This document shows, in pieces, positions 6,081 to 48,540 of a stretch of 64,000 bases of DNA (positions within the stretch are counted from its first letter, which is position 1; each line of letters opens with the position of its first letter). Below the pieces are notes generated by a model that was given only the letters and a program-made list of their open reading frames with translations, was not told where the DNA came from and made no database searches. The stretch comes from a bacterium (GTDB lineage Bacteria; UBP13; UBA5359). A program made the translations under genes and the position numbers. The stretch covers positions 7,559 through 71,558 of the forward strand of contig JAQUEL010000002.1 of NCBI GenBank assembly GCA_028685295.1. Direction: 5' to 3'.

Positions 6081-6199
6081 CCCTTACGAATTCCCTCTTG
6101 GTATTCAACGCAGACAAGCTGAAATCCTACCTGGTAAGGTTTACCGTCTGCCTGGTAAGGGTAGAATTTCAAAAGAGTGTATCATCAAGGAGGTTTCTC

Positions 6200-8671
6200 A
6201 TGAATAAAATCAATGAGGTTCCAGTAGAAAATCTGAGGCATTACGTAAACCCGGAGCAATTCGATTTTGAAACCACCAAGGATATAGCCCCGCTTACCGG
6301 CACCGTTGGCCAGGAGAGAGCTATCAGCGCTCTTAATTTCGGCTTTAACATCAAGACAGGAGGTTTTAATATCTATGCTGCCGGAGCCAAAGGAACGGGC
6401 AAAAATTCTACTATCAAGGCCTTTGTGCATGATAAGGCTCGACAGGAAGACCCTCATTGTGACTGGGTTTATGTTAACAATTTTAAGGAGACTGATAAAC
6501 CTAAGACCATCAGCGTTCCTACCGGCAAAGGTCCGGAACTGGCCGCAGATATGGACCAGTTGATAGCTGCCTGTAAAGAAGAGATCCCGCGTGCTTTTGA
6601 GAATGAAGATTATGATAAACGCAAGAGCGAGATCCTTAAGGATGTTCAAAAACGCCGCGACGAAATTCTTACGGAAATTCAGGCCATAGCTGAGAATAGC
6701 GGCTTCATAATAGAGATGACCAATATGGGGATTGTCACCGTTCCTGCCAAAAAAGGCAAACCTATGTCCAGAGATGAGTTTGAAGCTCTGGATAAAGATG
6801 AGAAGGACCGTTTGCAGGACAAGCTTATCAACCTTCAGACAGAGATCGGCCAGGCTCAGAATAAGGCCAGAAAGCTGGAACAAGAGGCAGAAGAGAAAAT
6901 ACGCAGCCTGGATAAAGAGGTGGCGCTCTTTGCTATTGGACATCTGCTGGATAGAATACGAGATGATTATAAAGAATGCTCCAAGGTAATAGATTATTTA
7001 GGCGAAGTGCAGAATGATATTATCGAACATCTGGATAATTTCAAACATGTCGCACGGCCGGAGGGAGCTACAGATGGCCAGCTTGCTTTGATGCAGGCGT
7101 TAGGACAGGGGGAGCCTACCTTCGATCAATATAAGGTCAACGTTTTTATAACCAACGGTCATGCTGAGGGTGCTCCTGTGGTTATTGAGAATAACCCGAC
7201 ATATTATAATCTGATAGGCCGGATAGATTACGATGCTAAGTTCGGCGTCATGACCACCAACTTCAATTTAGTCAAGCCTGGAGCTATTCACAGAGCCAAC
7301 GGTGGCTATCTGGTACTGCAGGCGCTGGATCTGCTGATGAACTTTCAATCATGGGACGCTTTAAAAAGAGTGTTGAGAAGCGGTGAGATTACCATAGAGA
7401 ATATCGGTGATCAATACCGTCCTATCCCCACTTCCACTCTAAAACCCGAACCTATTCCGGTCAATGTCAAGGTCATCCTCATCGGGAATCCGATGATCTA
7501 TCATCTGCTTTACGCCTATGACGAGGATTTTCCCAAACTTTTCAAGGTTAAGGCCGATTTCGGGCCGGATATGAATCGTAATGACGAGCATATACATGAA
7601 TATGCCTCGTTTATCACTGCCCGTGTCAATGAAGCCGGATTAAAGCATTTTCATAAGAGCGGTGTGGCCAGAATAGTGGAGTATGGCTCCCGTCTGATTG
7701 AGAACCAGAAGAAGCTCTCCACACGTTTTATCGAAATATCGGATATCATCAGCGAAGCCAGTTACTGGGCCGATAAGGATAACAGCGAGTATGTCATGGC
7801 CCGACATGTAGAAAAAGCGCTGTACGAGAAAAAATATCGCTCCAGCATGATAGAAGAACGCCTGCAGGAGATGATCAACGAAGGTACTCTGCTTATCGAT
7901 ACTGAGGGCGCTGTCGTGGGGCAGGTCAACGGTTTATCCGTGCTGGATATTGGAGATTATATGTTCGGCAAGCCTTCCCGCATCACCGCCAAGACATTTG
8001 TCGGACGGTCAGGAGTAACCAACATTGAGCGGGAAACAGCTATGGGCGGTCCGATACATAATAAAGGTGTCATGATCCTAACCGGATACCTGGGAAGCAA
8101 ATTCGCTGTTGATAAGCCCCTGGCTCTATCCGCCAGCATCACTTTCGAGCAGGAATATGGTGGAGTGGAAGGAGATAGCGCTTCCAGTACAGAGCTTTAT
8201 GCCATATTATCAAGCCTGGCGGAGGTGCCCATCAGACAAAATCTGGCGGTTACCGGATCCGTCAATCAAAAAGGAGAGATTCAGCCTATAGGAGGCGTCA
8301 ATCAGAAGATCGAAGGTTTTTTCGATGTCTGTCGCCTACGCGGCCTGACAGGAGATCAGGGCATTATGATCCCTCACCAGAATGTCAAGCATTTGATGTT
8401 GAGAAATGATATCATAGAAGCCGTTAAGAACGGAAGTTTTCATATCTTCCCCGTAAAATCCATAGATGAAGGCATCGAAATACTCACCGATATGGAAGCC
8501 GGGGCCAGAGATGAAAACGGGAAATATCCGGAGAACAGCATCTTTGGCAAAGCTGACAATAAGATCCAGCAATTTACCGATATCATGCGTATTTTTGGCG
8601 GCGGCGAAGATACGGAAGAGCGTAAGAAAGGTAAGATGGGCATGGCTGCAGAGGGAATAGACGAAGAATAA
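6200..8671 (+). CDS. Lon-like protease (LonC/AAA_32 plus S16 Lon_C domain)
   Basis: GQERA, GAKGTGK, coiled-coil insert, GAIHRANGGYL, catalytic GDSAS Ser and GGVNQKIEGF Lys. Start set at ATG 6200 after AGGAGG. Confidence 0.92.
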   Translation: MNKINEVPVENLRHYVNPEQFDFETTKDIAPLTGTVGQERAISALNFGFNIKTGGFNIYAAGAKGTGKNSTIKAFVHDKARQEDPHCDWVYVNNFKETDKPKTISVPTGKGPELAADMDQLIAACKEEIPRAFENEDYDKRKSEILKDVQKRRDEILTEIQAIAENSGFIIEMTNMGIVTVPAKKGKPMSRDEFEALDKDEKDRLQDKLINLQTEIGQAQNKARKLEQEAEEKIRSLDKEVALFAIGHLLDRIRDDYKECSKVIDYLGEVQNDIIEHLDNFKHVARPEGATDGQLALMQALGQGEPTFDQYKVNVFITNGHAEGAPVVIENNPTYYNLIGRIDYDAKFGVMTTNFNLVKPGAIHRANGGYLVLQALDLLMNFQSWDALKRVLRSGEITIENIGDQYRPIPTSTLKPEPIPVNVKVILIGNPMIYHLLYAYDEDFPKLFKVKADFGPDMNRNDEHIHEYASFITARVNEAGLKHFHKSGVARIVEYGSRLIENQKKLSTRFIEISDIISEASYWADKDNSEYVMARHVEKALYEKKYRSSMIEERLQEMINEGTLLIDTEGAVVGQVNGLSVLDIGDYMFGKPSRITAKTFVGRSGVTNIERETAMGGPIHNKGVMILTGYLGSKFAVDKPLALSASITFEQEYGGVEGDSASSTELYAILSSLAEVPIRQNLAVTGSVNQKGEIQPIGGVNQKIEGFFDVCRLRGLTGDQGIMIPHQNVKHLMLRNDIIEAVKNGSFHIFPVKSIDEGIEILTDMEAGARDENGKYPENSIFGKADNKIQQFTDIMRIFGGGEDTEERKKGKMGMAAEGIDEE

Positions 8672-9996: not shown

Positions 9997-11031
9997 TCAC
10001 CGCTTATTAATTTTGCCGGATTCTCTGGTCACCAGCTTCGGCTGTATAGTCAGCTGTTCCGGCGGCCTGGCAAGATCCTCTATCCTGGCTGTAAGCAGAG
10101 AGAGTATTCCAGCGGCAATATCTCTGATCCGAAGATCGAACGTCATCAGTGACGGCTTATAAAAAAGACTTTCCGGAGTATTGCCGAAACCGCAAACCGC
10201 AATATCCTCCGGTATGGATAGAGGACTCTCCTCAACGGCTCTCATAGCGCCAAAGGCTATCTGATCAGTACAACAGAAAACAGCCTCCGGTATCTTCTCG
10301 GATTTGAGAAGCTCGTTCATTCCCTGATATCCACTCATGGAAGTATCTTCCCGCAATAAAGCCTGCCTGCAGAAGACTGGTAGGCTTTTACTCGCCAGAA
10401 CGGTTGTTATGCCTTGCATCGCAGAAGATTCCAGATGAGCATTGGATGAGCAGAGATAGGCAATATCGTAGCGTCCCATTTCGACAAAATGCTCTGCCGC
10501 CATTAAAGCTGCCGCTTCCATATCAGTAATTACGCAATCATACTCTATACCGAAACGATTATAAATCACAAAAGGAATCGCCTGCATCAGCAAACGATCA
10601 ATAACAATCTGATAGTCGTCAGGTAAAATCCCCCCGGCCATAACAACCATACCATCTACCTTTCCGGCTATAACAGGCTCCAGATGGTTTTCCATACGGG
10701 CAATATCCCGGTAGTAAAAAGCTATAGCGGTATATCCATACTCTGACAGCCCCTCATCGAGAGCATCAAACAGGCTGCTGGATATATAATTGCCTATGTT
10801 CGGCAGGATAACACCTATTCTATATCTACGCTTAAGAGCACGTTGCCGAGCTGCCAGATTAGGGCTGTAGTCCAGGCTGGCAGCTACTTCCCTTACCCTG
10901 CGCTTGGTATCCTCACCAATATCCGGCTTATCACGAAGAGCACGTGAAACAGTATTTATCGATAAACCCGTCATTTCAGCAATATCTTTAAGCGTAGCTC
11001 TCCTTTGCTGCGATGAAGCACCCATTACCAT
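9997..11031 (-). CDS. LacI family transcriptional regulator
   Basis: TLKDIAEMTGLSINTVSRAL HTH, YSPNLAAR hinge, sugar-binding domain ending LVTRES. Confidence 0.92.
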   Translation of the reverse strand: MVMGASSQQRRATLKDIAEMTGLSINTVSRALRDKPDIGEDTKRRVREVAASLDYSPNLAARQRALKRRYRIGVILPNIGNYISSSLFDALDEGLSEYGYTAIAFYYRDIARMENHLEPVIAGKVDGMVVMAGGILPDDYQIVIDRLLMQAIPFVIYNRFGIEYDCVITDMEAAALMAAEHFVEMGRYDIAYLCSSNAHLESSAMQGITTVLASKSLPVFCRQALLREDTSMSGYQGMNELLKSEKIPEAVFCCTDQIAFGAMRAVEESPLSIPEDIAVCGFGNTPESLFYKPSLMTFDLRIRDIAAGILSLLTARIEDLARPPEQLTIQPKLVTRESGKINKR

Positions 11032-11041
11032 GACCTCGCTT

Positions 11042-11911
11042 CTAAGAATCCATGACCGGTGCTATAAGCTTGAAAGCCACTTCGCCCAACCTGATCCCCA
11101 GAGAGGCAGCCACCAGAGGACATTTAGCCCGTAACAGACAGTATATACGTCTGGGAGTGGATGATGACAGGCTCTCATAATGCCCGTGCCCCTTGCCGAT
11201 AACAATGTCGGCGCTATCGAAGATAGCACGGAATTCACGGCTGACATCTGCCAGAGGCGTGCCTATGCCGTTGCTGCCGCTGGTAATCACCCGGCAAAGC
11301 TTGTCCAGGCCGACGTAAGAAGCATCTTCCAGCGTGGAATCGTTAATGATAGGCCCATCTTTAACGGCATAGGTTAAATCCAAGCCGTAAGGCTCCAGTT
11401 CCTCTGCCAGTATCTTATCAAAAACTATTTCGCCGGTGTTATCGCCCAAAATAAGAAGACTACGAGCCGTTTTCAGGTCTGATAGCAGGGTATTATAATC
11501 ATCCACGGCAAAATCGCCCTCGGCTACCTCCGCCACAACCTCGGCCAGATCAAACTTCATACCTATGCCCAGGTCTATAATGTTACCGGCTACTGCCAGC
11601 TTTAGGGCGGTATGTAAACGATCAGAGCAATTTATCAGTAAATCACGGGCCTTCGGATAAAGCTCCAGTGCCAGATCGTTATACTTTCGCTTCATAGAGG
11701 CATAGGGATCAGGATTACCGGAAAGCTTCTCTATCATACGGTAAAGAGGCGTACATAAGGCCGTCGGTGTCAGGGATAGATCCATATTGCGTGAGTAATC
11801 ATGGGCCGCCGCCATAATCCTGGCTATAGTATCCTGATCATCGGTAGCCAGTCTGGCGGTATTGAGCGCCTGAGTCAAAATACAAGGCATACATTCAAAT
11901 CCGGCTTTCAT
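11042..11911 (-). CDS. ARMT1/DUF89 family damage-control phosphatase
   Basis: N-terminal C..C, AGNIID, DNTGE, NDST, GKGHGHYESL, LRAKC. Confidence 0.88.
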   Translation of the reverse strand: MKAGFECMPCILTQALNTARLATDDQDTIARIMAAAHDYSRNMDLSLTPTALCTPLYRMIEKLSGNPDPYASMKRKYNDLALELYPKARDLLINCSDRLHTALKLAVAGNIIDLGIGMKFDLAEVVAEVAEGDFAVDDYNTLLSDLKTARSLLILGDNTGEIVFDKILAEELEPYGLDLTYAVKDGPIINDSTLEDASYVGLDKLCRVITSGSNGIGTPLADVSREFRAIFDSADIVIGKGHGHYESLSSSTPRRIYCLLRAKCPLVAASLGIRLGEVAFKLIAPVMDS

Positions 11912-12024
11912 CGTAGCTGCTACTCCGTTGATTGCTCCGACATAGTGATAAATGTGCCGGGCAAGGACATTTTACCATGATGAGAGTAAAATGAAAAATT
12001 CCGCCCAGCTCTTCCCATATGAAG

Positions 12025-12162
12025 GGGGTCAGGAGTTTACCTCACTCATCAAGGAGTTATCAAGCTCTTTTATCGCTCTGCTTACGGTGACATAGTTGCT
12101 ATTCTTAAATGCCTGCCTATGGCGCTATTAATGCTAAATGTTAAATGTAAACTCCTGACCCC
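12025..12162. repeat. Perfect 16-bp inverted repeat pair (REP/MITE-like) overlapping the hypB 3' end
   Basis: GGGGTCAGGAGTTTAC at 12025-12040 and its exact reverse complement GTAAACTCCTGACCCC at 12147-12162. Confidence 0.75.
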
Positions 12163-12803
12163 ATGCTCTTCTCCCGCAGCCACCGGACCGCCGTATCTAT
12201 GCCTTCTCCGGTAGTGCAGGAGATATTGATGATAGGAGCTTCCTCATTGACGGCCCTGACAGCGGCGGAAAAGGCCTGCAGATTAAAATCTATAAGGGGT
12301 AAGAGATCGATTTTATTAAGAATAATAATATCGGCCTGAGCAAAAATCGCCGGATACTTGATAGGTTTGTCGTCACCCTCCGGAACACTGGCCACTACCA
12401 TATTAGCCGTTTCTCCCAGCCTGAAGTCGGTAGGGCAGATCAGATTACCTATGTTCTCTATAAAAAGATATCCCGGCCCTGATAATTTAAGATCGTCCAT
12501 AGCCCGATCTACCATGAAGGCGTCCAGATGACATGCCCCGCCGGTATTGATCTGAGTAACAGGCACACCGACGGCGGCAATACGGTCAGCGTCAATAGAG
12601 GAGGCAACATCTCCTTCGATAACTCCTCTGGAGAGCTCTGAGGGAATATTTTCCAGCAGGCGCATGATCAGACTGGTCTTGCCGGCACCGGGAGAGGCCA
12701 TAACATTGATCACCATCAGCTGAGATGCCTTAAATCTGGCTTTATTCCGCTCAGCCTGCTCATCGTTGGCGCTGAGGATAGATTTACGCACGCTAACTCT
12801 CAA
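12141..12803 (-). CDS. hypB: Hydrogenase nickel incorporation GTPase HypB
   Basis: SPGAGKT, EGD, TGGACH, ENIGNLICP, EGDDKPIKYP and NKID motifs. Confidence 0.96.
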   Translation of the reverse strand: MRVSVRKSILSANDEQAERNKARFKASQLMVINVMASPGAGKTSLIMRLLENIPSELSRGVIEGDVASSIDADRIAAVGVPVTQINTGGACHLDAFMVDRAMDDLKLSGPGYLFIENIGNLICPTDFRLGETANMVVASVPEGDDKPIKYPAIFAQADIIILNKIDLLPLIDFNLQAFSAAVRAVNEEAPIINISCTTGEGIDTAVRWLREKSMGSGVYI

Positions 12804-13147
12804 GATTCCACCTCTACACTGTCCAGATAAAGCGCTTTCCCGCCTTCAAGGCGATTGAAACCACCACAGGCGGAGCATTGCAGCGCCAGGCGTCCGTCCC
12901 CGGCATAATTCGTCTGCTTATCGCACTCTTTGCATATCAAATGGGCAGGCTCTATCACCAATCGTAAACAGGCCCCTTCGGCTGCCGTACATTTGCATAG
13001 TTCATTGAAATAAGCCGTCAGGCATTCCTCTTCCACACCAGCAAGCACACCGGCTACCACGGTGATGGCGGTAATCCGGCTATCTTTATCGGGCAGAGCC
13101 TCCAGAGCAGTATCCAGAACAGCCTGAGCTATGGCCGCCTCATGCAA
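12800..13147 (-). CDS. hypA: Hydrogenase nickel metallochaperone HypA
   Basis: N-terminal MHE Ni motif and two CxxC (CKEC, CSAC). Confidence 0.95.
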   Translation of the reverse strand: MHEAAIAQAVLDTALEALPDKDSRITAITVVAGVLAGVEEECLTAYFNELCKCTAAEGACLRLVIEPAHLICKECDKQTNYAGDGRLALQCSACGGFNRLEGGKALYLDSVEVES

Positions 13148-13453
13148 TCAGATCCCCCCTGGCAGACCGTGATTGGGGTTCATGGAGATACTCTTCTTGG
13201 GACAGATATCCGCACAATAACCACAGACAATGCATTTGTAGGGTTCCAATGTCCATGACCTGGGATCCTTGGACACGGTCAGGGCATTGGCTGGGCACTT
13301 ACGAGCACAAACGCCACAGAAGGTACAGGTTGATGGATCCATTTCCACATGTCCTCTGGATCCTGCAAAGGGAGCGCGGCGCTCTACCGGATAACACCTT
13401 GTCTCAGGCTTGCGCAGCACATTATTAATAACGCTTTTCAGCAAACTAACCAT
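13148..13453 (-). CDS. echF: Ech hydrogenase ferredoxin-like subunit EchF
   Basis: Two [4Fe-4S] motifs CTFCGVCARKCP and CIVCGYCADICP; operon position. Confidence 0.9.
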   Translation of the reverse strand: MVSLLKSVINNVLRKPETRCYPVERRAPFAGSRGHVEMDPSTCTFCGVCARKCPANALTVSKDPRSWTLEPYKCIVCGYCADICPKKSISMNPNHGLPGGI

Positions 13454-13468
13454 CTTTTAAGACTCCCA

Positions 13469-14551
13469 TCATCTCTCCGTGCAGCTTATACACGGATCGA
13501 TCGAAAGAACTATAACCGGCACGTTGGCCAGTTCGCAACCCGGCAGCATGGTCAGCAATGGAGCCATGTTGGCAAAGGTTGGGGTCCGCACCCGCAGACG
13601 CTCCAGGTTCTTGGTGCCGTCACCTTTGATATAATAGATGACTTCACCTCTGGGCTGCTCCACCCTGGATATGACTTCGCCCTCAGGATTACCTCTGGCA
13701 GGCACGGCAATATCGCCGGCGGGTATATCCCTGACAGCCTGGCGAACAATATCTATGGATTGATACATCTCCCTTATCCTGACCCGAGCACGAGCATAAG
13801 CATCACCGCCGGTTTCCGTAACGGGAGTTACCTTGATCTCTTTGTAGGCGGCATATCCTGTTTCTCGAAAATCTCTGGCAATGCCGCAGGCTCGGGCCAC
13901 AGGCCCGACACTTCCCAGATCATAAGCCTGTTCTGAAGTTATACGACCGGTACCTACCAGGCGCTGTTTAACACTGTAATCATCAAAGACCACCGGCCGA
14001 ATAATCTCTAAATCACGCTCCAGAACATCTACCGTCTTCAGCACTTCAGCCATAAGCTCTTCGGAGATATCGCGTCTGACGCCTCCTATGATGCAGGTGG
14101 AAATAATTACACGCCCGCCTGCAGTAGCTTCCATAATATCCATTACGGCCTCACGGCTGCGCCAGGATTGCATGAAGAGACTCTCAAAACCGAAAGAATC
14201 CGCCAGCAGCCCCAACCAGAGCAGATGGCTGTGCAGCCGATGCAATTCACTCCAGATAACTCTTAGATAGCGAGCGCGATCGGGCACAGTTACATCCATC
14301 AGCATCTCTATGCCCTGGCAGTATGCCAGAGCATGCATGAAACTACAGATACCGCAAATTCGCTCTACCAGGAAGATATTCTGCGTATATTCCTTCTTCT
14401 CGGCCAGCTTCTCTATGCCTCTATGGACATAACCTATGGCCGGAAGAGCCTCCACAACTTTTTCATCCTCCAGCACCAACCGGAGCTGTAGCGGCTCTGG
14501 AAAAACGGGATGCTGTGGTCCAAAAGGTATTATCGACTTACTTCCGGGCAT
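13469..14551 (-). CDS. echE: Ech [NiFe]-hydrogenase large subunit EchE (group 4)
   Basis: FGPQHP, L1 RICGIC, L2 DPCISCTER ending at the terminus with no cleavable extension. Confidence 0.95.
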   Translation of the reverse strand: MPGSKSIIPFGPQHPVFPEPLQLRLVLEDEKVVEALPAIGYVHRGIEKLAEKKEYTQNIFLVERICGICSFMHALAYCQGIEMLMDVTVPDRARYLRVIWSELHRLHSHLLWLGLLADSFGFESLFMQSWRSREAVMDIMEATAGGRVIISTCIIGGVRRDISEELMAEVLKTVDVLERDLEIIRPVVFDDYSVKQRLVGTGRITSEQAYDLGSVGPVARACGIARDFRETGYAAYKEIKVTPVTETGGDAYARARVRIREMYQSIDIVRQAVRDIPAGDIAVPARGNPEGEVISRVEQPRGEVIYYIKGDGTKNLERLRVRTPTFANMAPLLTMLPGCELANVPVIVLSIDPCISCTER

Positions 14552-14956
14552 CTATTTATCCTCCTCTTCCGGAGCTCCCTGTAATCGAATATCTATAGCT
14601 CTGGAACACCCTTCTCTGCCCATGGGAGCTACGGGAGCATCCTCAGTTAGAAGAAATCTGCCGCCGTAATCTATGACCAGGTCCCTGATGGGAATGGAAA
14701 AAAGGTCCTTGATCTCATTCTCCACCAATAATGCGGCAAAGAAGATGGAAGATATACTGGGCAATTCTTCGCCTTTCTTCAAATACAGACGCAGATTACA
14801 AAGCTCATAATCCTTATCAAAATGGTATAGGATATCGTAACCATCCCCTATATCGGTGCAGGTCATAGTCGCAAAACGATATCTCTGTCTATATTTACCG
14901 GCGACTTCCTGCAGAAGCCTGTCCGGACTCACTGCTACCGTATTCATCAAACTCAT
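14552..14956 (-). CDS. echD: Ech hydrogenase subunit EchD (NuoC-like)
   Basis: YHFD, SISSIF..A.LVENEIKDLF patterns. Start set at ATG 14956 after AGGAG. Confidence 0.88.
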   Translation of the reverse strand: MSLMNTVAVSPDRLLQEVAGKYRQRYRFATMTCTDIGDGYDILYHFDKDYELCNLRLYLKKGEELPSISSIFFAALLVENEIKDLFSIPIRDLVIDYGGRFLLTEDAPVAPMGREGCSRAIDIRLQGAPEEEDK

Positions 14957-14984
14957 TTCATCTCTCCTATGCAAAACCGCTTCT

Positions 14985-15464
14985 TCAAACCTTTTCCGGC
15001 TCACTTACAGGCTGAAGCGTCAGCCGCACTTCAGCACCGGCATGGCGATCTTTCTGATGCACATTCAGAAGCCTGGCCGCCTGCAGTATGCCATCCATGA
15101 TAGCCTCCGGGCGAGGCGGACAGCCAGGTACAAGCACATCTACCGGAATGACCTGATTCACTCCACCCAACACGTTATAGCAATCGGCCATAATACCGCC
15201 GGTAGCGCCACAAGCTCCCAGAGCCACCACTGCTTTGGGAGAGGGCATTTGCTCATAAACGTTCTTCAAAACTCTGACATTGCGGTGATTCACCGCTCCA
15301 CTTACCACCAGGATATCAGCATGCTTAGGGTTTCCCACATGCACAATCCCAAAACGCTCAACATCATATATAGGTGTCAGGCAAGCTAAAAATTCTATAT
15401 CACATCCATTGCAGCTGTTGCAATTAAAATGGACTATCCAGGGTGATTTCTCCCGACAATTCAT
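14985..15464 (-). CDS. echC: Ech hydrogenase small subunit EchC
   Basis: KSPW..H.NCNSCNGCDIE, GACG and PGCPPRP. Confidence 0.95.
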   Translation of the reverse strand: MNCREKSPWIVHFNCNSCNGCDIEFLACLTPIYDVERFGIVHVGNPKHADILVVSGAVNHRNVRVLKNVYEQMPSPKAVVALGACGATGGIMADCYNVLGGVNQVIPVDVLVPGCPPRPEAIMDGILQAARLLNVHQKDRHAGAEVRLTLQPVSEPEKV

Positions 15465-15485: not shown

Positions 15486-16340
15486 TTAAATATACAGCCA
15501 TAACACATTGGTAACTGCCAGGCCCAGGGCTACCGTCCACATAAACCTGAGCATCCACGGCCAGGTTAGCCTGGCCATAATGTTATCCAGCAGTATTTCA
15601 CAGAAAAAACAGACCGCCGCTATCAGCAGTCCAACCGGGATACTGGTGGCCCAGAACATCGTTATAATAAAGAAGAGCAGAAATATTTCATACCAATGCG
15701 TAATTTCCAGAATAGCCAGAAAGGGGCCTGAATATTCCAGGGTAATGCCTTTGATTATCTCCTGATGTCCGTGATGTGAAGTGGAAAAATCAAAGGGTGA
15801 TTTCTGCAGTTTTATAGCCATTACCATCAAAAAGGCCGGAAAAATAAGCGGTAAAGATAGAAGAAGCGGCTTGCCGGAAGCCAGGATATCTCGTGCCATG
15901 AAACTATCGTTAATCAGATATATACCTACAAGCATCAGAATTAAAATCGGCTCATAGGAGAGCATCTGCATGATCTCTCTCTGGCTTCCTATTCTGCTGT
16001 AAGGTGAGCGCACGCTCATTCCACCCAGGATCAAGGATATAGTGGAAAAAGCCAGAATAAAGAGCGCCATCAGCATATCCTGACCAAGGGCCAGCAGAAC
16101 CACACAGAGAACCATAAATATCAGATGAAGGCCGGCATAGATTATTTGCACTCTGTTGACAACAATGGGTTCCTTATGCAGCAGTTTGATAACATCATAG
16201 ATAGGCTGTAGTAATGGAGGACCGATCCTGCTCTGCATTCTGGCCGTAAGCTTGCGATCGAGCCCCACCAAAAATGCGCCTATAAACGGTACTGCGAATA
16301 TGGCCAGAAGAGCTGTAATTACCGGATCAATCATGATCAC
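15486..16340 (-). CDS. echB: Ech hydrogenase membrane subunit EchB (NuoH-like)
   Basis: DRKLTARMQSRIGPP, SYE, KSPFD and EYSG motifs; hydrophobic. Confidence 0.93.
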   Translation of the reverse strand: MIMIDPVITALLAIFAVPFIGAFLVGLDRKLTARMQSRIGPPLLQPIYDVIKLLHKEPIVVNRVQIIYAGLHLIFMVLCVVLLALGQDMLMALFILAFSTISLILGGMSVRSPYSRIGSQREIMQMLSYEPILILMLVGIYLINDSFMARDILASGKPLLLSLPLIFPAFLMVMAIKLQKSPFDFSTSHHGHQEIIKGITLEYSGPFLAILEITHWYEIFLLFFIITMFWATSIPVGLLIAAVCFFCEILLDNIMARLTWPWMLRFMWTVALGLAVTNVLWLYI

Positions 16341-18241
16341 TTACTTATCACCCCAAACATTATAAATATCAGCGCTATAGCTATCGGGTTGGCCCAGGCC
16401 GTAAGATGAGCTTCGCCGAAAAGCGGGTTCAGATAGTAGCTCCTGATACGAGCAGATTCCCCTTTATCCATCAGAGTTCTGAACTCAAAGGTGGTTTTTG
16501 CGCCCTCTAAATTCTCGCCACAGAGAAAGGGCTGCCGGATATGGCTTTTTTTGATGCCTCTAACCACCAAAAAAAGTACCGGCACCACCAGTGCCAGCAT
16601 GAAAAAAAGCGGCCACTCAATAAAGGCACTGGCGGAATTCATTAGATCCCAAGAACGGGAAGTTACCACTGTTTCGGAGAACATCGCCATGGCCATAGGG
16701 CTTATTACTCGCTTGAACAGTGGAACAACAACTGCAGCAGCAGCAATAATTCCCAGCAACAAAACACCCTTAGTAGCAAACATAGAGAAGGGAACATCTT
16801 CAATCTTATAAACGGGATGATAGGCCACCGTTTGTATTCTTCCTATCCATTTGGACCAGAACACCACTGTCAAAGCGCTGCCCATAATCAGCAAAAAGAG
16901 GACCAGCGGCGACATAATGACTGCTTCCAAAGCCATCCACTTGCCGATAAGCATACCAAAAGGAGGCATCATCATGGAAACCATACCGATTATGGCGATA
17001 ACGGTTGTTATAGGCATCTTCCGCATCAGCCCCTCCATATCCTCGATATCACGGCTACCTATACCCTGCTCTATCGTTCCCACACACAGAAAGAGCATCG
17101 CCTTGGAAATTGCATGGAAGCAGGTAAGCAGGATAGCTGCCGCATAAGCCAGAGGCGTATGGATAGCGGCACAAATAATTATAAGCCCAAGGTTGGCTAT
17201 GGTTGAATAAGCCAGAACCTTCTTCCCGTTGCTCTGGCTGATCGCCATGGCGGAAGCAAGAGCAAAAGTGAAAGCACCAGCTATAGCCACTACCTGTCCC
17301 ATCCTGGTGCCGCCCAGCCCCGGAGCCAGGCGAATGATGAGGTAGACACCGGCTTTGACCATGGTAGTGGAGTGAAGTAGAGCGGATACAGGTGTCGGCG
17401 CTACCATGGCCCCCAGCAGCCAGCTTTGGAAAGGCAATTGTGCCGATTTGGTAAAAGCGGCCAGGCAGATCAATGCCAGCGGCAGCAGAGAGCCAACAGC
17501 TACAAGCTCGTCCAAACTTGCCGAGCCACTGGCAGATATGCTGAGAAATGAAGCCAGCATCAACGCTGCGCCACCCAAAGAATTTATCCATAATGCTCTG
17601 TAGGCACTCTCTCCGGCATCCTCGGTCTTATCGTGACCGATAAGCATGAAGGAGCAGAGCGTCGTCAATTCCCAGAAGATAGCCAGTAATTTCAGATCAT
17701 TGGACATGACCAGGCCGTTCATCACTCCCAGAAAACCTATCAAAAAGAAAAAGAAAAGTCCGGTGCTTCTCATCTGCTCCGGACCATGCACTTCATACCG
17801 TTTCATATAGCCGATAGCATACATAACAATCAGAGGCCCGATGACGGAAACTATAAGCACCATAATCACAGCGAGAAGGTCCACCTTTAGCGTGGGCACA
17901 TGTGCCTGTACTGAGTGCGGCAGCATATCCGAAATAAGACCTATAGCCAACTGGAGAATCCCCAGACCGATAATCAGCATTTTTTTAATGGCAAAGCCTA
18001 TATAAATAATGATGGCGAGAATCAGCAATTCAATCAGCGGCAGAGCCTTCATCAAACCGCTATCAATAGAGAGTGTGAATGGGCCTTGCAAAGCTAGAAG
18101 AATACCGCCTGCCATTATTGTCAAAGCAGATAAAACGATCACAGGTGTCTTGTATCGCCAGCCGGGAGCCAGCATGACTAGCAAGCCAAAAATTAACGGA
18201 CCGAAAATTAACAATAAAGACAAAAAAGTGTACAAATGCAT
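16337..18241 (-). CDS. echA: Ech hydrogenase antiporter-like subunit EchA (NuoL/MrpA-like)
   Basis: WELTT, KSAQLPF..WL..AM.APTPVSALLHSTTMVKAGVY and LAYST motifs. Confidence 0.94.
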   Translation of the reverse strand: MHLYTFLSLLLIFGPLIFGLLVMLAPGWRYKTPVIVLSALTIMAGGILLALQGPFTLSIDSGLMKALPLIELLILAIIIYIGFAIKKMLIIGLGILQLAIGLISDMLPHSVQAHVPTLKVDLLAVIMVLIVSVIGPLIVMYAIGYMKRYEVHGPEQMRSTGLFFFFLIGFLGVMNGLVMSNDLKLLAIFWELTTLCSFMLIGHDKTEDAGESAYRALWINSLGGAALMLASFLSISASGSASLDELVAVGSLLPLALICLAAFTKSAQLPFQSWLLGAMVAPTPVSALLHSTTMVKAGVYLIIRLAPGLGGTRMGQVVAIAGAFTFALASAMAISQSNGKKVLAYSTIANLGLIIICAAIHTPLAYAAAILLTCFHAISKAMLFLCVGTIEQGIGSRDIEDMEGLMRKMPITTVIAIIGMVSMMMPPFGMLIGKWMALEAVIMSPLVLFLLIMGSALTVVFWSKWIGRIQTVAYHPVYKIEDVPFSMFATKGVLLLGIIAAAAVVVPLFKRVISPMAMAMFSETVVTSRSWDLMNSASAFIEWPLFFMLALVVPVLFLVVRGIKKSHIRQPFLCGENLEGAKTTFEFRTLMDKGESARIRSYYLNPLFGEAHLTAWANPIAIALIFIMFGVISK

Positions 18242-18322: not shown

Positions 18323-18351
18323 ATTTTACCTTGCCGATGCAGCCGTGTCAA
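18323..18351 (-). promoter_or_regulatory. Sigma70-type promoter of the ech operon
   Basis: Minus strand TTGACA (18351-18346), 17-nt spacer, TAAAAT (18328-18323), directly after the upstream stop codon. Confidence 0.8.
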
Positions 18352-19668
18352 TTAAGACGCTGCATGGCTTACCCCTATATCGGTGGGTGCCCGACCAAGA
18401 TCTGAAAGAATATTCAGAAGATCGGAGATCTGATTTTCAAGGCTTTCATTCAAATGTGCTCGATCAGGGTAAAGCGTATATTCCCGGCGCAAAGCATCAG
18501 GTGTCAGGCTTATCATAACGGAATTGGCTCCGGCACTCAGGCCCTGCCGACGAGCATCCTTCTCCAGAGTTTCAAAGCTGGTAGTGACGACAATTTTAGC
18601 ATTTCGGGCATCGGCAATACGGGCAACGGCTAATGCCTTAAGCACCTCCACAGCAGCCGGACTATGCGAATTTGCCAATGGCGTCCCCGGATGTGGAATA
18701 AAGGGGCCGAAGGAATACATTTCAGCTTGCAGACTCCTGGTAAGAGAGATATCTCCGAGTATGTCCTCTCTCGTCTGGCCGGGAAGGCCTATAAGCCCTC
18801 CGGTTATAAGCAGATAGCCCATATCGAAAGCAACACGCAGATGCTCCAGACGGCTGTCCAGCCTGCGCCCGGGATGCAACTGCTCATAAAGATGCGGATT
18901 GCTCGTTTCAAACCGCATCAATAATCCTCTGGCACCGGCTTCATACAATCTTTGCACTCCGGGTAGGCCTACCTCACCGCAACTGATAAAGATCAACGCC
19001 GGCTCTCTCTCTCTGATGCCGCTGACTATTTGACAGAGATTATCGATTGAATATGCCGGATCTTCGCCGCTTTGCAGAACCAATGCCTTGAAACCGTACT
19101 TGCTTATGGCTTTGCAAGCGGCTTTCACCACTTCCTCCGGTGTCATCCTGTAAGGCTTCAGCCTCTTGTTACGAGCTGATATGCCGCAATAGCCACAGCT
19201 CTGTCTACAGTAATTGGAAAACTCTATTATGCCGTGGATGCAGCAAGAGTTACCCAGATGCTTATGGCGCAGATAATTGGCCGCCTGCATCAGTCGGGCT
19301 ACATCCTCTTTGCCTTCCAGATTGAGAAGATAAAGCAGATCCTCTTCCGTCACCTCTTCTTCATCGGCAACTATCCGTTCCAATATCAACGACAACCGAT
19401 CGCCGGCTGTTTTATCCATACGCTTGAAACCGGACAGATGCTGGTCTCTCTCCTGGAGTTCAAAGAAGAGCTCTTTCCAGAGTGCCAGCACCTCTTGTGC
19501 CTCGGCATCAGGAACAGCATCTATGACATATCCTCCCTGTGCATAGATATAATCGCCCTCTCTCAGGTTGCTGATCTCATTAACAGCCCGCCGCTGCTCA
19601 CCAAAATAATCTATAATGATGGTACGACCATCAATACTCACTACCCTGCCGGGAATGGAATAACACAT
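18352..19668 (-). CDS. HypC-like domain fused to a HydE-like radical SAM enzyme
   Basis: Residues 1-~67 MCYSIPGRVV...GDYIYAQGGYVI...EAQEVL are HypC/HupF-like. The remainder has IEFSNYCRQSCGYC (CxxxCxxC), VLQSGED, YEQLHP, GPFIPHPGTPL and YTLYPDR, as in the HydE/PylB/BioB subgroup. Confidence 0.85.
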   Translation of the reverse strand: MCYSIPGRVVSIDGRTIIIDYFGEQRRAVNEISNLREGDYIYAQGGYVIDAVPDAEAQEVLALWKELFFELQERDQHLSGFKRMDKTAGDRLSLILERIVADEEEVTEEDLLYLLNLEGKEDVARLMQAANYLRHKHLGNSCCIHGIIEFSNYCRQSCGYCGISARNKRLKPYRMTPEEVVKAACKAISKYGFKALVLQSGEDPAYSIDNLCQIVSGIREREPALIFISCGEVGLPGVQRLYEAGARGLLMRFETSNPHLYEQLHPGRRLDSRLEHLRVAFDMGYLLITGGLIGLPGQTREDILGDISLTRSLQAEMYSFGPFIPHPGTPLANSHSPAAVEVLKALAVARIADARNAKIVVTTSFETLEKDARRQGLSAGANSVMISLTPDALRREYTLYPDRAHLNESLENQISDLLNILSDLGRAPTDIGVSHAAS

Positions 19669-19911
19669 TTCATGCTCCGATATAACTTATGGCTATGCAA
19701 ACATATATAGCTCACTACAAGTAAACTATTTTGCATATTGCTGCAAACAAAGACTTTGTTTATGATCAGCTACCCCCGATACACACCGACATCTTTATAA
19801 CTCTCTCAGAAAAATATGAAAAAGCAATCAATAAAGCCCCATATATGCTAACTCTGCTGAACAAATGTGTCAAGAACTGTTCCCTTGAGTAAGATAGTAC
19901 GGTAAAATGGG

Positions 19912-20610: not shown

Positions 20611-22433
20611 TTACATTTCTACTCGGGTCACAACCCCCTGTATCTTGCCTGCAGGCAATTTATAAAACTGGACGAAAGTCGGTGCCAAACGTTTGAGCAT
20701 AGCAAAAACCGTCCAGAAAAAGTTATTGGTAGTTATATCTTCCACACCATAGAAAATGACTCTCTCCTCAATATCGTTCTGCTTCAGCAGGCTCTCTATA
20801 TCCAGAACCTCCCTGTAGCCGGCCCAGAACTCCAGAAGATCCATACCGGAAGCCCTATTGCGGTAGATTTCCGTTGTCAAGCCGTAAGGTTCGTCGGTCC
20901 TACGGACGGAGACCAGAATATTTCTGTCATAGATAATACCGCTATCCAGAATACAGTGCACCAGATATGGATGCACGATATCGACTGTTCTATTAAAGAA
21001 CAATGCCGCGCCCTCAAGCCTCTTCCCCTTCTCATATAATTTTTCATAGCGGCGTATGAAACTCTTCATATCCATGGGGCACATAGCATGGTAAAGTGCC
21101 TTCTGCCCACTAGTCCAGATCAGGATGGTAGCCAGAGGAATAGCAGCCAGAATCAGGGACCAGTAACCTCCATGACTGAGCTTGTTAAGGTTGGCAATCA
21201 GAAAGACGGCATCAACCACTGTCACCATAGCTGCAACAGGCGCCTTCCAGGAAGATGAGCGAGAGAAGATCATGGTCATCATTATCCCGGTTATAGTATT
21301 GTTCCTGTAACGGCCAGGCCATAAGCAGCCGCCAAATTTTCCGATCGGCGAAAAACAAGCATAATAAAAACAACAGCTACCATGAGGGACCAATTAACGG
21401 AACCTAGGTATATTTGCGATTTAAGCTTGCTGGAAGTATAGCTTATTCTCAACCAGGGCATGATACGAGTGGTAATTCCCTGATAAACTATGGAATAGAC
21501 ACCGCTGATCAAGGACTGGGAAGCAATGACAGTGGCAAGGATAGTCAGTATCAGAGTAGGTATGTAGAGTATATTCAACTCCTCGCGGAACATACCGAAG
21601 AGGATGTTCTGTGCTTCGGGATGCCGCAGGATAAAGGCACCCTGCCCAAGGTAATTGATAACCAGGGCAAGGAAGACGAAATACCAGGCCCTGATTATCG
21701 GACGTTTCCCCAGGTGTCCCATATCGGCATACAAAGCCTCCCCGCCGGTAGCACAAAGTATGACTTCCGAGAGAATCAATCCACCGGCAATTCCGTTATG
21801 CATAAGGAAGCTTAAAGCGTATAAAGGATTTACCGCCTTGATTACCCCGGGCAGGCTCTGTATGGAGATTATTCCGGAGACAGCTAAGGTTATGAACCAT
21901 ATCACCATCAACGGCCCAAATGCTCCGGCCACTTTATCCGTTCCCTTGTATTGGAAGAAAAAGAGGCTGATGGCTATCAATGCGGCAATAAGAATAATCA
22001 TCCATTGATGCATGCCGGCCAGGCCGGGTACCAGGCGCATACCTTCAACAGCGGAGAGAATAGTTATGGCCGGCGTTATGACGCCGTCTCCCAGTATCAA
22101 CGATATCCCCAGAAAGGATAAAAAGCCGACAAAGGCTATCTGCCGGTTGCTTTTCAGGAGTTTGACCAGAATCTCTTTGAGAACAACAGTTCCTCCCTGT
22201 CCATCTTGCTCCAAACTCATGGCCAGCCAGGCATACTCAATGGTAACTAGAAGAATTAGAGTCCAGACGATCAGCGACAGTATACCGAAAACGTTGCTCT
22301 CTGTAGGCTTTATCAAAGCCATGATAACCGTCAAGGTATATATGGGACTGGTACCGATATCGCCAAAGACCAACCCCATAGCTTTGACGATACCCTCCCA
22401 AAAAGAGTACCCCTCATTCCTGTGCCGAGACAT
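20611..22433 (-). pseudogene. kup: KUP/HAK/KT potassium transporter split by a 1-nt frameshift (true pseudogene or sequencing error)
   Basis: ORF 21291-22433 carries GDIGTSPIY, GDGVITPAI, TGGEALYADMGH and AAAYGLAVTG. ORF 20611-21393 continues in another frame (TITGIMM...KLSHGGY). One base is missing between 21298 and 21297. Confidence 0.85.
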
Positions 22434-27649: not shown

Positions 27650-28177
27650 ATGAAACTGCTTCATGAATATCGTCGGGGCTTCACCCTGATAGAACTTCTC
27701 GTTATCCTGGCCGTTATCGCCATGCTGATAGCTATAGTCATGCCGGTATTCAGCAAGGTTAAGGCTCGATCTCGTCAGACTCAATGTATCTCCAATCTCC
27801 ATGCCATAGGACAGGCTCTAGCTATATACAGAATTGATTTCAAGGGGTATCCTCCAAGAAACAATACGAATTACAACAGCGTAAACGGCTTTTTGGCCCT
27901 AGCTGACCCTGATATCTACAGACCTAACCCGCCTTATCTTAATGATAAAAAGGCCTTTATCTGCCCTTCTGATGACAATGGCAGCACAGTAAGAGATGCG
28001 GTTGAAGAGAAGTACTCCTCGTATTCCTACGATCCCAATTATCCAGGTTTATTTACTTCTCTGACATACAACAAAGATGTAGGCGGCAACACTCCGGCAG
28101 CTCTATGCCCTAAATCCAGGCATGGCGTAGTGATTGAACTGAAAGTAAATGGAGAAGTCATTCTTAATAGAGAGTAA
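27650..28177 (+). CDS. Prepilin-type N-terminal cleavage/methylation protein (DUF1559-like)
   Basis: RRG|FTLIELLV..., CISNLHAIGQAL, FICPSD. Confidence 0.88.
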   Translation: MKLLHEYRRGFTLIELLVILAVIAMLIAIVMPVFSKVKARSRQTQCISNLHAIGQALAIYRIDFKGYPPRNNTNYNSVNGFLALADPDIYRPNPPYLNDKKAFICPSDDNGSTVRDAVEEKYSSYSYDPNYPGLFTSLTYNKDVGGNTPAALCPKSRHGVVIELKVNGEVILNRE

Positions 28178-36597: not shown

Positions 36598-37296
36598 TTA
36601 TCTGTGTTTTGATTCATCGAAAATATTTGCTAAATTATCCCCTATCGAGGCGCGCTGCCATTTCACATGGCCATCGCAGTAGAGAATATTCAAGCCCTCG
36701 GAGTGCCTGTTACGCAAGCGCTGGCTTGAAACTTTTTCACCCAGCACGCCTATACCGGCATTACTGGTGGGATTGCCCCATTCGGATCCCTCCGAATCCG
36801 CTACCACGCCTACCTCGCTCGGCTTCATAATCCTGGTCATATCATTATACTGCGCCCACTCATTTGTGCCCCCGCTCCAATATGCCCACAGCACCCGAAA
36901 ATAGAGATAATCCGTGGGAACGATAAGTTGGCTTTCCAGGGAGGAGCAATCAAAAATAGTGTTCGCATAGCAAGGACTTGCATTTTTATCGTATTTTCCT
37001 TTGACTCCGACATATGGAGCCAAAAAATCCGCCCAGTATCTGCTCTGGCCGGCTGTGCCGAAGGAATTATAAGCCGGTGGAAACCACTCGTCGTAGTCCT
37101 GCGCATACATCAACAATCCCTGCCCAATTTGCTTCAGATTACTCTGGCAGGTCGTCTGCCTGGCCTTCTCTCTCGATCTACTGAAAACCGGAAAAAGTAT
37201 GGCGCTAAGGATTGCTATAATAGCTATAACTACTAATAACTCGATAAGTGTAAATCCTCTTCTTTCCCTGCGACAGCCCTCGTATCTGATAATCAT
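36598..37296 (-). CDS. DUF1559-type prepilin protein with H-X9-DG motif
   Basis: RRG|[41 protein letters not shown]. Confidence 0.92.
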
Positions 37297-46303: not shown

Positions 46304-47092
46304 TCAATACATCTGCTGCCCGCCTGTAACGTTGATAGCCTGTCCTGTAATATATGAGGCTTCATCCGAAACTAGAAAAACCACCACATTGGCCACGTCC
46401 TGCAGGTCACAGGAGCGCCCTAACGGTACCTTCTCCACATATTTGGCTCTTACTTGCTCTGGCGGAATACCCAGCTTTTTAGCGTATTCCTTGTCCAATC
46501 TATCCCAAAGAGGCGTTTCAAAGACATTTCCCGGGCAGACAGCGTTAACCGTTATTCCGAACGGCGCCAGATCAAGGGCTGCGCTCTGTGTCATACCAAT
46601 GATGCCGAATTTCGAGGTGCTGTAAGCCGCCAGCCAAAGCCCACCCTTCTTGCCCGATTTGGAACTCATATTGATGATGCGGCCACTCTTTTGCTCAATC
46701 ATAATCCTGGCTGCTTCACGAGTGCAAAGCATCGTGCCTCTGAGATTTACGGACATAGAGAGATCCCAGTCCTTGAGCTCCATATCGAATATTGGCTTGC
46801 TATGCAGAATACCGGCATTATTGACCAGGATATCCAGACGACCGAATTTATCTATAACAGCCTTGAAGGCATCTGCTACCTGCGCTTCATCAGAAATATC
46901 CACTCCCAGAGCCAGCGAACGCCTCCCTCCAGCCTCTATCTCCTCTGTCACAGCCTGCGCATTATGATAATTAAGATCAGCTACAGCTACATGACAACCC
47001 TCCTCAGCCAGGCGAAGGGCTAATCCTCTGCCTATGCCCTGTCCTGCCCCAGTCGCCAAAGCGATTTTATTTTCCAATCTGTTGCAACACAT
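46304..47092 (-). CDS. SDR oxidoreductase, sorbitol-6-phosphate dehydrogenase (SrlD)-like
   Basis: TGAGQGIG, NNAG, SKSGK, YSTSK; C-terminal YAKKLGI...KVPL.R.C..QDV...GQAINVTGGQ resembling SrlD. Confidence 0.8.
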   Translation of the reverse strand: MCCNRLENKIALATGAGQGIGRGLALRLAEEGCHVAVADLNYHNAQAVTEEIEAGGRRSLALGVDISDEAQVADAFKAVIDKFGRLDILVNNAGILHSKPIFDMELKDWDLSMSVNLRGTMLCTREAARIMIEQKSGRIINMSSKSGKKGGLWLAAYSTSKFGIIGMTQSAALDLAPFGITVNAVCPGNVFETPLWDRLDKEYAKKLGIPPEQVRAKYVEKVPLGRSCDLQDVANVVVFLVSDEASYITGQAINVTGGQQMY

Positions 47093-48525: not shown

Positions 48526-48540
48526 TATTCAGCGTCCTCC

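Follow-up and report, generated by a model that had tools for sequence, protein, structure and literature searches.

A widespread HypC–HydE-like fusion protein as a candidate maturation factor of [NiFe] hydrogenases

All textbook schemes known to us hold the maturation of [NiFe] hydrogenases, which is carried out by HypA–F, apart from that of [FeFe] hydrogenases, which is carried out by HydE, HydF, and HydG. In the [NiFe] pathway, the N-terminal cysteine of HypC is an iron ligand; HypC acts with HypD as a scaffold complex, the genes of the two are usually linked, and stand-alone HypC uses a conserved histidine for its own Fe/CO2 binding. In the [FeFe] pathway, HydG makes an [Fe(Cys)(CO)2(CN)] synthon from tyrosine. 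Here we describe a gene that encodes one part from each of these pathways in a single chain, a HypC-like domain followed by a HydE-like radical S-adenosylmethionine (SAM) enzyme. It was found in a 64,000-nucleotide stretch of contig JAQUEL010000002.1 (GenBank assembly GCA_028685295.1, positions 7,559 to 71,558) from a bacterium of the lineage UBP13 (UBA5359); this whole stretch is called the window below. Based on the comparisons of sequences and gene order presented here, the family of this protein is most suitably classed as a new and widespread variant: a radical-SAM enzyme that derives from HydE, and whose product site has been rebuilt, is joined to a carrier of the HypC type that lacks the histidine, and the family is genetically tied to [NiFe] hydrogenases and to HydG.

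In HydE of Thermotoga maritima (TmHydE), an Fe(CO)2(CN) species from the HydG product is bound to M224, and M291 is the proposed holder of a second copy; the two copies dimerize in the cavity between M224 and M291, and R54, T134, R155, and T269 contact the cyanides of the resulting di-iron dimer (PMC11826987; PMC10114646). Mutation of this product site is reported to impair maturation (PMC10114646). As for the [NiFe] enzymes, a 2025 review of the biosynthesis of their cofactor describes the anoxic source of CO as unknown and mentions neither radical-SAM enzymes nor HydG, and the fusion goes unmentioned in a 2024 survey of hydrogenases and maturases in archaea. A full-text literature search returned no study characterizing a HypC–HydE fusion and only one passing mention, of an “unusual HydE-HypC fusion” in the Legionellales endosymbiont Candidatus Centrionella anaeramoebae (preprint of April 2026; bioRxiv 10.64898/2026.04.11.717937). 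The original prediction for this locus, which was made from the window alone, had stated that no characterized protein with this architecture was known to it; we likewise found no characterization, but the architecture itself had been noted once, in that preprint.

Two domains in one protein

The fusion gene lies on the minus strand (Table 1), where a single uninterrupted open reading frame (ORF) of 438 codons runs from an ATG at 19668 to a stop codon at 18352 and begins with MCYSIPGRV. A plus-strand reading of the same interval was ruled out, because its translation is full of stops. The uninterrupted frame, the Met-Cys start preceded by a ribosome-binding site, and the position directly upstream of an Ech operon had all been predicted and were found again here, the operon following on the same strand as echABCDEF-hypA-hypB according to Pfam and NCBIfam; only the strand had been left unstated.

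The N-terminus scores as HypC in Pfam, in which HupF_HypC (PF01455) matches residues 1–64 with 42.4 bits against a cutoff of 28.5; the NCBIfam model of HypC (TIGR00074) gives 39.5 bits, below its cutoff of 48. Residues 1–70 can be aligned over their whole length with HypC chains of known structure, best with 2z1c from Thermococcus kodakarensis (E = 1e-8) and also with 3vyr, 3d3r, and 2ot2, and the predicted secondary structure matches the HypC fold. In an alignment of 119 full-length homologues, Cys2, Gln44, and the MCxxxPG start are invariant. The HypC/HupF pattern with a retained Cys2, as proposed originally, is therefore supported, and the alignment with the solved chains also bears out the proposed replacement of the HypC histidine: Gln44 (IYAQGGY) occupies the exact place of the conserved histidine (VIVHTGF), which corresponds to His51 of the Escherichia coli protein in the VxVHxGF motif. 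This histidine is missing from every fused version, the main clade having Gln in YAQGG and divergent subclades having T, Y, A, or M. A stand-alone HypC adjoining one of the divergent fusions (L090) retains it. The linker that follows, WKExFFELQExDLRLS, is strongly conserved across homologues.

The larger part of the protein matches Pfam Radical_SAM (PF04055) at residues 148–305 with 60.2 bits (cutoff 29.5) and BATS at residues 323–388. Its best NCBIfam model is HydE (TIGR03956), with 232.9 bits, which is below the equivalog cutoff of 254.6; the relatives score 228–239 bits. PylB (143.7 bits against 348), BioB (101.7 against 225), and HmdB (68.4 against 321) rank lower and are also under their equivalog cutoffs. 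The barrel aligns with TmHydE over ~330 residues (E = 1e-61), and this alignment confirmed the HydE motifs read from the sequence in the original prediction, i.e., CX3CX2C at C154, C158, and C161, LQSGED (residues 198–203), GPFIPHPGTPL, and YTLY (residues 397–400). An AlphaFold2 model of the fusion, calculated from the alignment of 119 homologues, has a mean predicted local distance difference test (pLDDT) score of 91.2 and a predicted template modeling (pTM) score of 0.90, and the high pTM is suggestive of a single, fixed packing of the two domains. When searched with Foldseek, the model matched the TmHydE structure 3iiz with a TM score of 0.92, a root-mean-square deviation of 1.7 Å, and 37% identity.

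A short signature tells the fusions and canonical HydE apart. Eleven residues ahead of the cluster motif, HydE proteins have the signature (V/I)-(H/Y/F)-(L/I)-R-(G/A), and the fusions have x-C-(V/I)-H-G. A neighbor-joining tree of 137 barrels groups every C-x-H protein in a single clade and places TmHydE among the x-x-R proteins. In a library of 50%-identity representatives, ~25 of the top matches were fusions and the remainder were stand-alone HydE-like proteins. We compared residues between 20 representatives of the clade and 108 representatives of HydE. The position of TmHydE R54 is R in 108/108 HydE sequences and H in 20/20 clade sequences (His145 of the window protein); that of T134 is T in 103/108 and F in 18/20 (Phe227); and that of R155 is R in 101/108 and G or A in 20/20 (Gly248). 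At the position of H52, HydE has H, Y, or F, never C, and the clade has C in 20/20 (Cys143). Cys143 and His145 are also invariant in the 119 full-length homologues. Common to the clade and HydE, by contrast, are the cluster cysteines, Q107/Q199 (TmHydE/window protein), R159/R252, R180/R273, V105, L157, Y303/Y397, Y306/Y400, M224/M317, and M291/M385, of which M317, M385, Q199, R252, R273, Y397, and Y400 are kept in all 20 clade representatives.

Judging from the tree and these residues, the radical-SAM half is not HydE itself but a paralogue of it, which is monophyletic and has a rebuilt product site. By the same comparison, the clade has retained the residues that bind and attack the synthon, lost those for the di-iron product, and gained a cysteine and a histidine at the same place. 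The description of this half as a HydE-like radical-SAM enzyme thus stands with respect to the fold and the motifs, but it does not extend to an assignment as HydE, since the protein belongs to a separate clade, its product site is replaced, and its score is below the TIGR03956 cutoff. The retained pocket, the lost product site, and the new Cys/His pair lead us to propose that the product would be a mono-iron species on protein ligands.

Distribution and gene neighborhoods of the fusion

A search of 5.8 billion proteins yielded at least 120 full-length relatives with 54–95% identity, nearly all with both Pfam domains, a result well in excess of chance; their source names are “HydE,” “radical SAM protein,” “biotin synthase,” and “HypC family chaperone.” When one genome per species was searched (185,579 species), 299 loci encoded a relative. 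The best 80 of these 299 belong to Omnitrophota (the most), Margulisiibacteriota/Saganbacteria/WOR-1, Brevinematales and other Spirochaetota, Atribacterota, Planctomycetia/Brocadiaceae, Riflebacteria/Ozemobacteraceae, and one clostridial metagenome-assembled genome (MAG), and the carriers in Atribacterota include the closed genome of Ca. Caldatribacterium SIUC1. The nearest relative, from “bacterium UBP13_UBA5359,” has 95% amino-acid identity and the same order, fusion-ech-hypA-hypB. A scan of metagenomes added 80 further loci, down to 40% identity, and this set includes a class of fusions with a short linker. In all fetched loci, a check with hidden Markov models detected the HypC domain in 162 of the 169 proteins with the C-x-H signature; five of the remaining seven are cut by contig ends, and two (L088 and L089) are truly unfused. 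The signature and the fusion with HypC are almost perfectly coupled.

Four relatives are triple fusions of HypC, the HydE-like barrel (HydE′), and HydG in one chain: L051 (921 amino acids), L161 (895 amino acids, from position 189 onward), P0122 (906 amino acids), and P0131 (881 amino acids). The L051 protein (9998–12763) is encoded in a closed Omnitrophota chromosome, CP070797.1, and has Pfam HupF_HypC, two Radical_SAM domains, and two BATS domains. For one of the unfused clade members, the start lies 4 nucleotides within the 3′ end of a [NiFe] large-subunit gene (…DPCMSCAAH…), and hydG comes next. As a separate observation, at L089 (4766–7208), an unfused C-x-H member and HydG occur on a contig with archaeal-type neighbors (a histone-fold protein and DUF359), with no hydrogenase gene within 10 kb.

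Gene neighborhoods were counted only where a locus extended 3 kb or more to either side of the fusion, which was the case for 50 loci in the genome set and 30 in the metagenome set, and features within 10 kb were considered. The [NiFe] large subunit was present at 42/50 and 17/30 loci, respectively, and HydG at 29/50 and 20/30; HydG was directly adjacent at 22/50 and 17/30. The [FeFe] hydrogenase HydA, which was sought with phmmer seeded from Pfam-verified HydA, was present at 5/50 and 1/30 loci, and HydF, which on L024 was found only via Pfam, at 2/50 and 0/30. A stand-alone HypC was present at 0/50 and 1/30 loci, and HypD, HypE, or HypF at 0/50 and 0/30; phmmer searches in which the E. coli proteins served as queries, together with a search for signature motifs, detected none of the latter three within 10 kb in any of ~160 loci. 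Clustering of all flanking ORFs at 78 species-level loci gave the [NiFe] large subunit (58 loci), HycI (57), a short HypA (56), two diaphorase-type subunits (40 and 38), the small subunit (38), and the redox regulator Rex (29). Both Ni-Fe cysteine motifs are present in 63/63 neighboring large subunits, and the adjacent HydG is bona fide, scoring 504–521 bits with TIGR03955 (cutoff 312). The usual order is [NiFe] structural genes-hycI-hypA-fusion-(hydG), with overlapping start and stop codons. Three kinds of [NiFe] hydrogenase occur beside the fusion: a group-3b-like enzyme (Fer4_22, a subunit binding flavin and nicotinamide adenine dinucleotides, and the small and large subunits), a group-4 enzyme resembling Mrp/Mbh or formate hydrogenlyase, and Ech. 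Homologues of the fusion are thus tightly linked to hydrogenase genes. The fusion falls outside HydE proper in its score, its product site, and its gene context, and outside classical HypC in its histidine, its size, and its lack of linkage to HypD; it clearly makes use of parts from both.

The most frequent non-hydrogenase neighbor of the fusion is a Rex-type redox-sensing repressor (Put_DNA-bind_N and CoA_binding), encoded directly 3′ of the fusion or of HydG (L001, L004, and L032; ~29 species-level loci). In Saganbacteria, a stand-alone response regulator follows HydG. In an Omnitrophota MAG, a 660-amino-acid [NiFe] small subunit with NiFe_hyd_SSU_C and then bacterial Ig-like domains is encoded directly after fusion-hydG (L048, 12852–14834).

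Some loci also carry genes of the [FeFe] pathway. In Omnitrophota, at L034 and L054, the genes of a bifurcating [FeFe] hydrogenase (hydB, hydA, and hydC) lie a few kb downstream of the fusion, and after them come hydG and a hydE of the canonical type, which has the Arg signature; L040 has the same layout with a hydE signature that is not readable, and L057 and L061 have it in part. At L024, hydF-hydG-hydE, the hydE being canonical, lies upstream of [NiFe]-hycI-fusion, and at L058, fusion-hydG is followed by a weak hydF-like match. Because canonical HydE and the fusion are encoded in the same genomes (L024, L034, and L054), the fusion is not the HydE of these organisms. In a tree of HydG, the proteins beside canonical HydE nest among those beside fusions. 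A separate HydG paralogue serving the fusion was rejected because of this intermixing, and the single HydG orthologue is presumably shared by both branches.

A variant of HydG was observed at some of these loci. About 15 HydGs beside the fusion (~498 amino acids; L029, L031, L035, L037, L043, L044, L048, L060, L063, L073, and others) lack the canonical C-terminal CX2CX22C and instead have FCTAGYRCGRTGKC...KFC (roughly CX5CX5CX13C). They form one clade, which includes a HydG beside canonical HydE.

Proposed function and competing explanations

In our best reading, the fusion would be a maturation factor of [NiFe] hydrogenases that combines a neofunctionalized HydE paralogue (HydE-prime, written HydE′ above) with an iron carrier of the HypC type. 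On balance we lean toward a route in which the Fe(CO)2(CN)-cysteine synthon of HydG would yield a mono-iron unit that reaches the [NiFe] large subunit by way of Cys2. Support for it comes from patterns of conservation, from gene order, and from the Rosetta-stone triple fusions. First, HydG, which is encoded beside the fusion in about half of the relatives and is absent from the window, would supply [Fe(Cys)(CO)2(CN)]. The barrel of the fusion would then bind the synthon, and a 5′-deoxyadenosyl radical would attack the cysteine sulfur, as HydE does; the conservation of CX3CX2C, Q199, R252, R273, Y397/Y400, M385, and M317 points to this step. In the cavity where HydE dimerizes two Fe(I) units, which is rebuilt here (His145, Phe227, Gly248, and Cys143), a single Fe(CO)x(CN) unit would be held on Cys/His/Met ligands, and this unit would subsequently move to Cys2 of the HypC-like domain. 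Finally, in keeping with the established roles of HypC, HypA, and HypB, the HypC-like domain would dock on the apo large subunit, here EchE, and transfer the iron unit, after which HypA and HypB would insert nickel. The original prediction had offered two options for the fusion, i.e., that radical-SAM chemistry assists in bringing an Fe-CO/CN unit to EchE or that the HypC domain has been repurposed as a synthon carrier; comparative genomics favors the supply of such a unit to a [NiFe] enzyme and disfavors a carrier function in [FeFe] maturation.

In the main reading, such a route would be supplementary and would provide Fe-CO(-CN), and cyanide would possibly still be added by HypD, HypE, and HypF. 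We are doubtful that HydG and HypC-HydE′ constitute a second, tyrosine-based Fe-CO/CN route that gives the CO ligand anaerobically and replaces HypCDEF in some genomes; candidates for such a replacement would be, e.g., reduced endosymbionts and genomes whose structural genes are accompanied by no more than hycI, hypA, hypB, and the fusion. According to a published table, at least one genome of Omnitrophota, which is not linkable to the fusion, has hypA and hypC–F, and the presence of hypC–F in this phylum makes a full replacement of HypCDEF the minority reading.

That genome is also one of several points that weigh against the proposed HydG-dependent route. HydG delivers its synthon as Fe(CO)2(CN), but Fe(CO)(CN)2 is required at the [NiFe] site, so an extra ligand-exchange step must be assumed. 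In the closest relatives with the order fusion-ech-hypAB (L007, L008, L056, and L069), no hydG was found within 10 kb, and in the window, Pfam searches of the main ORFs up to 55 kb detected no hydG, hydF, hydA, or hypC/D/E/F elsewhere. At some loci, moreover, the fusion stands beside hydG and a weak hydF-like match (L058) or 2–6 kb from an [FeFe] operon.

Another explanation would be that the HypC-like domain serves solely to direct the enzyme to HypD or to the apo [NiFe] large subunit, and that the barrel carries out a HydG-independent reaction, such as synthesis of CO or another ligand from some other small molecule or modification of the large subunit. In the Ech-linked relatives (UBP13 and Ozemobacteraceae) and in Riflebacteria with fusion-hypA-hypB, hydG, hydF, hydA, and hypC–F were all absent within 10 kb; the description of the Ca. 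Centrionella endosymbiont lists no HydG; the origin of the CO of [NiFe] enzymes under anaerobic conditions is listed as unknown; and the fusion scores below the HydE equivalog cutoff. We nevertheless consider this explanation rather unlikely, because the residues in common with HydE are exactly those of the substrate pocket and the methionine relay, hydG is adjacent to the fusion in a large share of the loci counted above and is covalently joined to it in at least four cases, and the HydGs beside fusions and beside canonical HydE are the same orthologue.

It is still harder to accept that the fusion is its lineage's own HydE for an [FeFe] hydrogenase, with the HypC-like domain shuttling the synthon between HydG, HydE, and HydF, and we regard this as improbable. 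HydE is indeed its best family match and TmHydE its best structural match, HydG is the commonest maturase neighbor after HycI and HypA, and to the fusion-hydG arrangement with a weak hydF-like match at L058 are added several Omnitrophota loci with [FeFe] hydABC 2–6 kb downstream. However, the product-site residues that are near-invariant in the 108 HydEs are all replaced, at a site in which mutations impair maturation (PMC10114646), and a canonical hydE stands beside hydG at L024, L034, and L054. Within 10 kb of the fusion, [FeFe] HydA is far rarer than the [NiFe] large subunit (5/50 and 1/30 against 42/50 and 17/30 loci). The window itself holds an Ech operon with hypAB and no [FeFe] gene that we could find, and HypC is otherwise a [NiFe]-specific factor. 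Lastly, an artefact of assembly or gene calling, in which a chimeric contig or an error in sequencing would have brought together a hypC gene and a hydE-like gene, was refuted, with no point found in its favor: the frame is uninterrupted, the linker is conserved, AlphaFold2 is confident across the junction, and the fusion is far from unique to this assembly, with 119 aligned homologues, 299 species-level genomes, and 162 independent fused proteins from many studies and phyla.

The proposed role as a [NiFe] maturation factor would have several consequences. The family physically unites one part from each maturation pathway, is encoded with [NiFe] genes and with HydG in many phyla, and raises the testable idea that an iron carbonyl cyanide unit derived from HydG is routed into [NiFe] enzymes. 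If this is true, the annotation of maturation genes would change, as the current labels “HydE,” “biotin synthase,” and “HypC” inflate the counts of [FeFe] maturases; the fusion would matter for making group 3 and group 4 hydrogenases in heterologous hosts; and it would be an example of HydE chemistry retuned from a di-iron to a mono-iron product. Even if the fusion instead served as a carrier in [FeFe] maturation, it would represent an unexpected reuse of HypC in H-cluster assembly.

The window and comparison with known systems

The features of the locus are summarized in Table 1. With its six subunits in the order echABCDEF and both Ni-Fe cysteine motifs in EchE, the operon downstream of the fusion gene has the characteristics of an Ech-type (group 4) energy-converting [NiFe] hydrogenase. 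EchE has no C-terminal extension, so a protease would not be needed, which agrees with the lack of a maturation-protease gene at the locus. No terminator-like site was found between the fusion gene and echA. The strongest sigma-70-like match of the region lies in this interval, so the ech genes may possess their own promoter; the total number of such matches in the region is not above chance.

Table 1. Coordinates of the fusion gene, its residues of interest, and neighboring features in the window
Feature	Position	Strand	Basis or remark
HypC-like/HydE-like radical-SAM fusion gene	18352..19668	minus	438-amino-acid frame, Pfam, NCBIfam, homologues
HypC/HupF-like domain, residues 1–77, five beta strands and a long helix	19438..19668	minus	Pfam PF01455, 2z1c alignment, predicted secondary structure
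Cys2 codon	19663-19665	minus	N-terminal Cys after initiator Met
Gln44 codon	19537-19539	minus	at HypC His position
HydE-like radical-SAM (beta-alpha)8 barrel, residues 141–430	18379..19248	minus	TmHydE alignment, Foldseek
Clade-specific Cys143	19240-19242	minus	TmHydE H52 position
Clade-specific His145	19234-19236	minus	TmHydE R54 position
CX3CX2C (C154/C158/C161)	19186-19209	minus	cluster motif
Met317	18718-18720	minus	TmHydE M224
Met385	18514-18516	minus	TmHydE M291
Ribosome-binding site GGAG	19675..19678	minus	6 nucleotides 5′ of fusion ATG
Sigma-70-like promoter match, 10/12	19845..19873	minus	5′ of fusion gene, in 243-nucleotide gap to divergent dedA; consensus match only
Sigma-70-like promoter match, 11/12, TTGACA-17-TAAAAT	18323..18351	minus	1 nucleotide past fusion stop codon, 82 nucleotides upstream of echA; consensus match only
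echA, 634 amino acids, antiporter-like membrane subunit	16337..18241	minus	Pfam, NCBIfam
echB, 284 amino acids, NuoH-like membrane subunit	15486..16340	minus	Pfam, NCBIfam
echC, 159 amino acids, [NiFe] hydrogenase small subunit, NuoB-like	14985..15464	minus	Pfam, NCBIfam
echD, 150 amino acids, NuoC-like	14552..15004	minus	Pfam
echE, 360 amino acids, [NiFe] large subunit; RICGICS and C-terminal DPCISCTER	13469..14551	minus	Pfam, NCBIfam, motif check
echF, 101 amino acids, 2x[4Fe-4S] ferredoxin-like subunit	13148..13453	minus	Pfam, NCBIfam
hypA, 115 amino acids, nickel metallochaperone	12800..13147	minus	Pfam, NCBIfam
hypB, 220 amino acids, nickel-insertion GTPase	12141..12803	minus	TIGR00073, 256 bits (cutoff 121)

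Several features elsewhere in the window were also recorded. The reading frame of a Kup-type K+ transporter on the minus strand (20611–22433) is broken up into two ORFs that overlap, of which 21291–22433 covers positions 2–365 of the K_trans profile and 20611–21393 covers positions 366–443 and the K_trans_C domain; the split looks like a frameshift, either in a pseudogene or from a sequencing error. Two proteins with a prepilin N-methylation motif and DUF1559 (SBP_bac_10) are encoded at 27650–28177 (plus strand) and 36598–37296 (minus strand). Such a pairing is typical of genomes of Planctomycetota and of the Planctomycetota–Verrucomicrobiota–Chlamydiota type, and the two proteins hint at possible affinities of the UBP13 organism. 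On the minus strand, a complete 2-oxoacid (acetoin/pyruvate-type) dehydrogenase set of E1 alpha, E1 beta, lipoyl-E2, and a short-chain dehydrogenase (40030–41418 and 46304–50577) is odd company for a presumed anaerobe with Ech; an E3-like dihydrolipoamide dehydrogenase lies 6 kb from it, adjoining a PocR/AraC regulator. An 857-amino-acid Lon-like protease (6098–8671, plus strand) has a LonC helical domain, a LonB-type AAA domain, and Lon_C, and starts with TTG; its ORF overlaps an antisense ORF of 252 amino acids with no family match.

The fusion of Ca. Centrionella, which we compared by description only, appears to have the same architecture and the same context, in a [NiFe] operon containing HybD, HypA, and HypB (bioRxiv 10.64898/2026.04.11.717937). 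It is mentioned there without analysis of its sequence, mechanism, or distribution, and the main text on this organism does not name HypD, HypE, HypF, or HydG (bioRxiv 10.64898/2026.04.11.717937). The likeness to HypX is conceptual: HypX is, and the fusion would be, an accessory enzyme that provides CO as a ligand through a pathway of its own and is confined to certain lineages. Their families and chemistry are unrelated, HypX being aerobic and dependent on formyl-tetrahydrofolate and coenzyme A, and the fusion being a radical-SAM protein of strictly anaerobic lineages.

With the HypC/HybG/HupF chaperones (PF01455; 2z1c, 3vyr, and 2ot2), the fusion shares the Pfam domain, the MCxxxPG start, a predicted beta-barrel with a C-terminal helix, and genes encoded alongside (hypA, hypB, hycI, and the [NiFe] structural genes). 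In contrast to these free proteins of ~75–90 amino acids, its HypC part is joined to an enzyme, lacks the conserved histidine, scores below the TIGR00074 cutoff, and is never adjacent to hypD. With HydE (TIGR03956; 3iiz, 7o1o, and 7o1t), it shares the (beta-alpha)8 fold, CX3CX2C, the pocket residues, both methionines, and a frequent HydG neighbor. It differs from HydE in its separate clade, its score below the equivalog cutoff, the changes of R54 to His, T134 to Phe, and R155 to Gly/Ala, and the invariant Cys in place of H52; it also has no auxiliary-cluster cysteines, carries the N-terminal HypC domain, and has [NiFe] rather than [FeFe] genes as neighbors. Finally, the proposed route and the HydG–HydE–HydF pathway to the [2Fe] subcluster probably start alike, with HydG as the initial enzyme and a shared initial radical reaction on the Fe(Cys)(CO)2(CN) synthon. 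They differ in that HydF was detected beside the fusion in only 2/50 loci and the dimerization site is missing from the fusion, the likely recipient of which would be the [NiFe] large subunit and not HydF or HydA.

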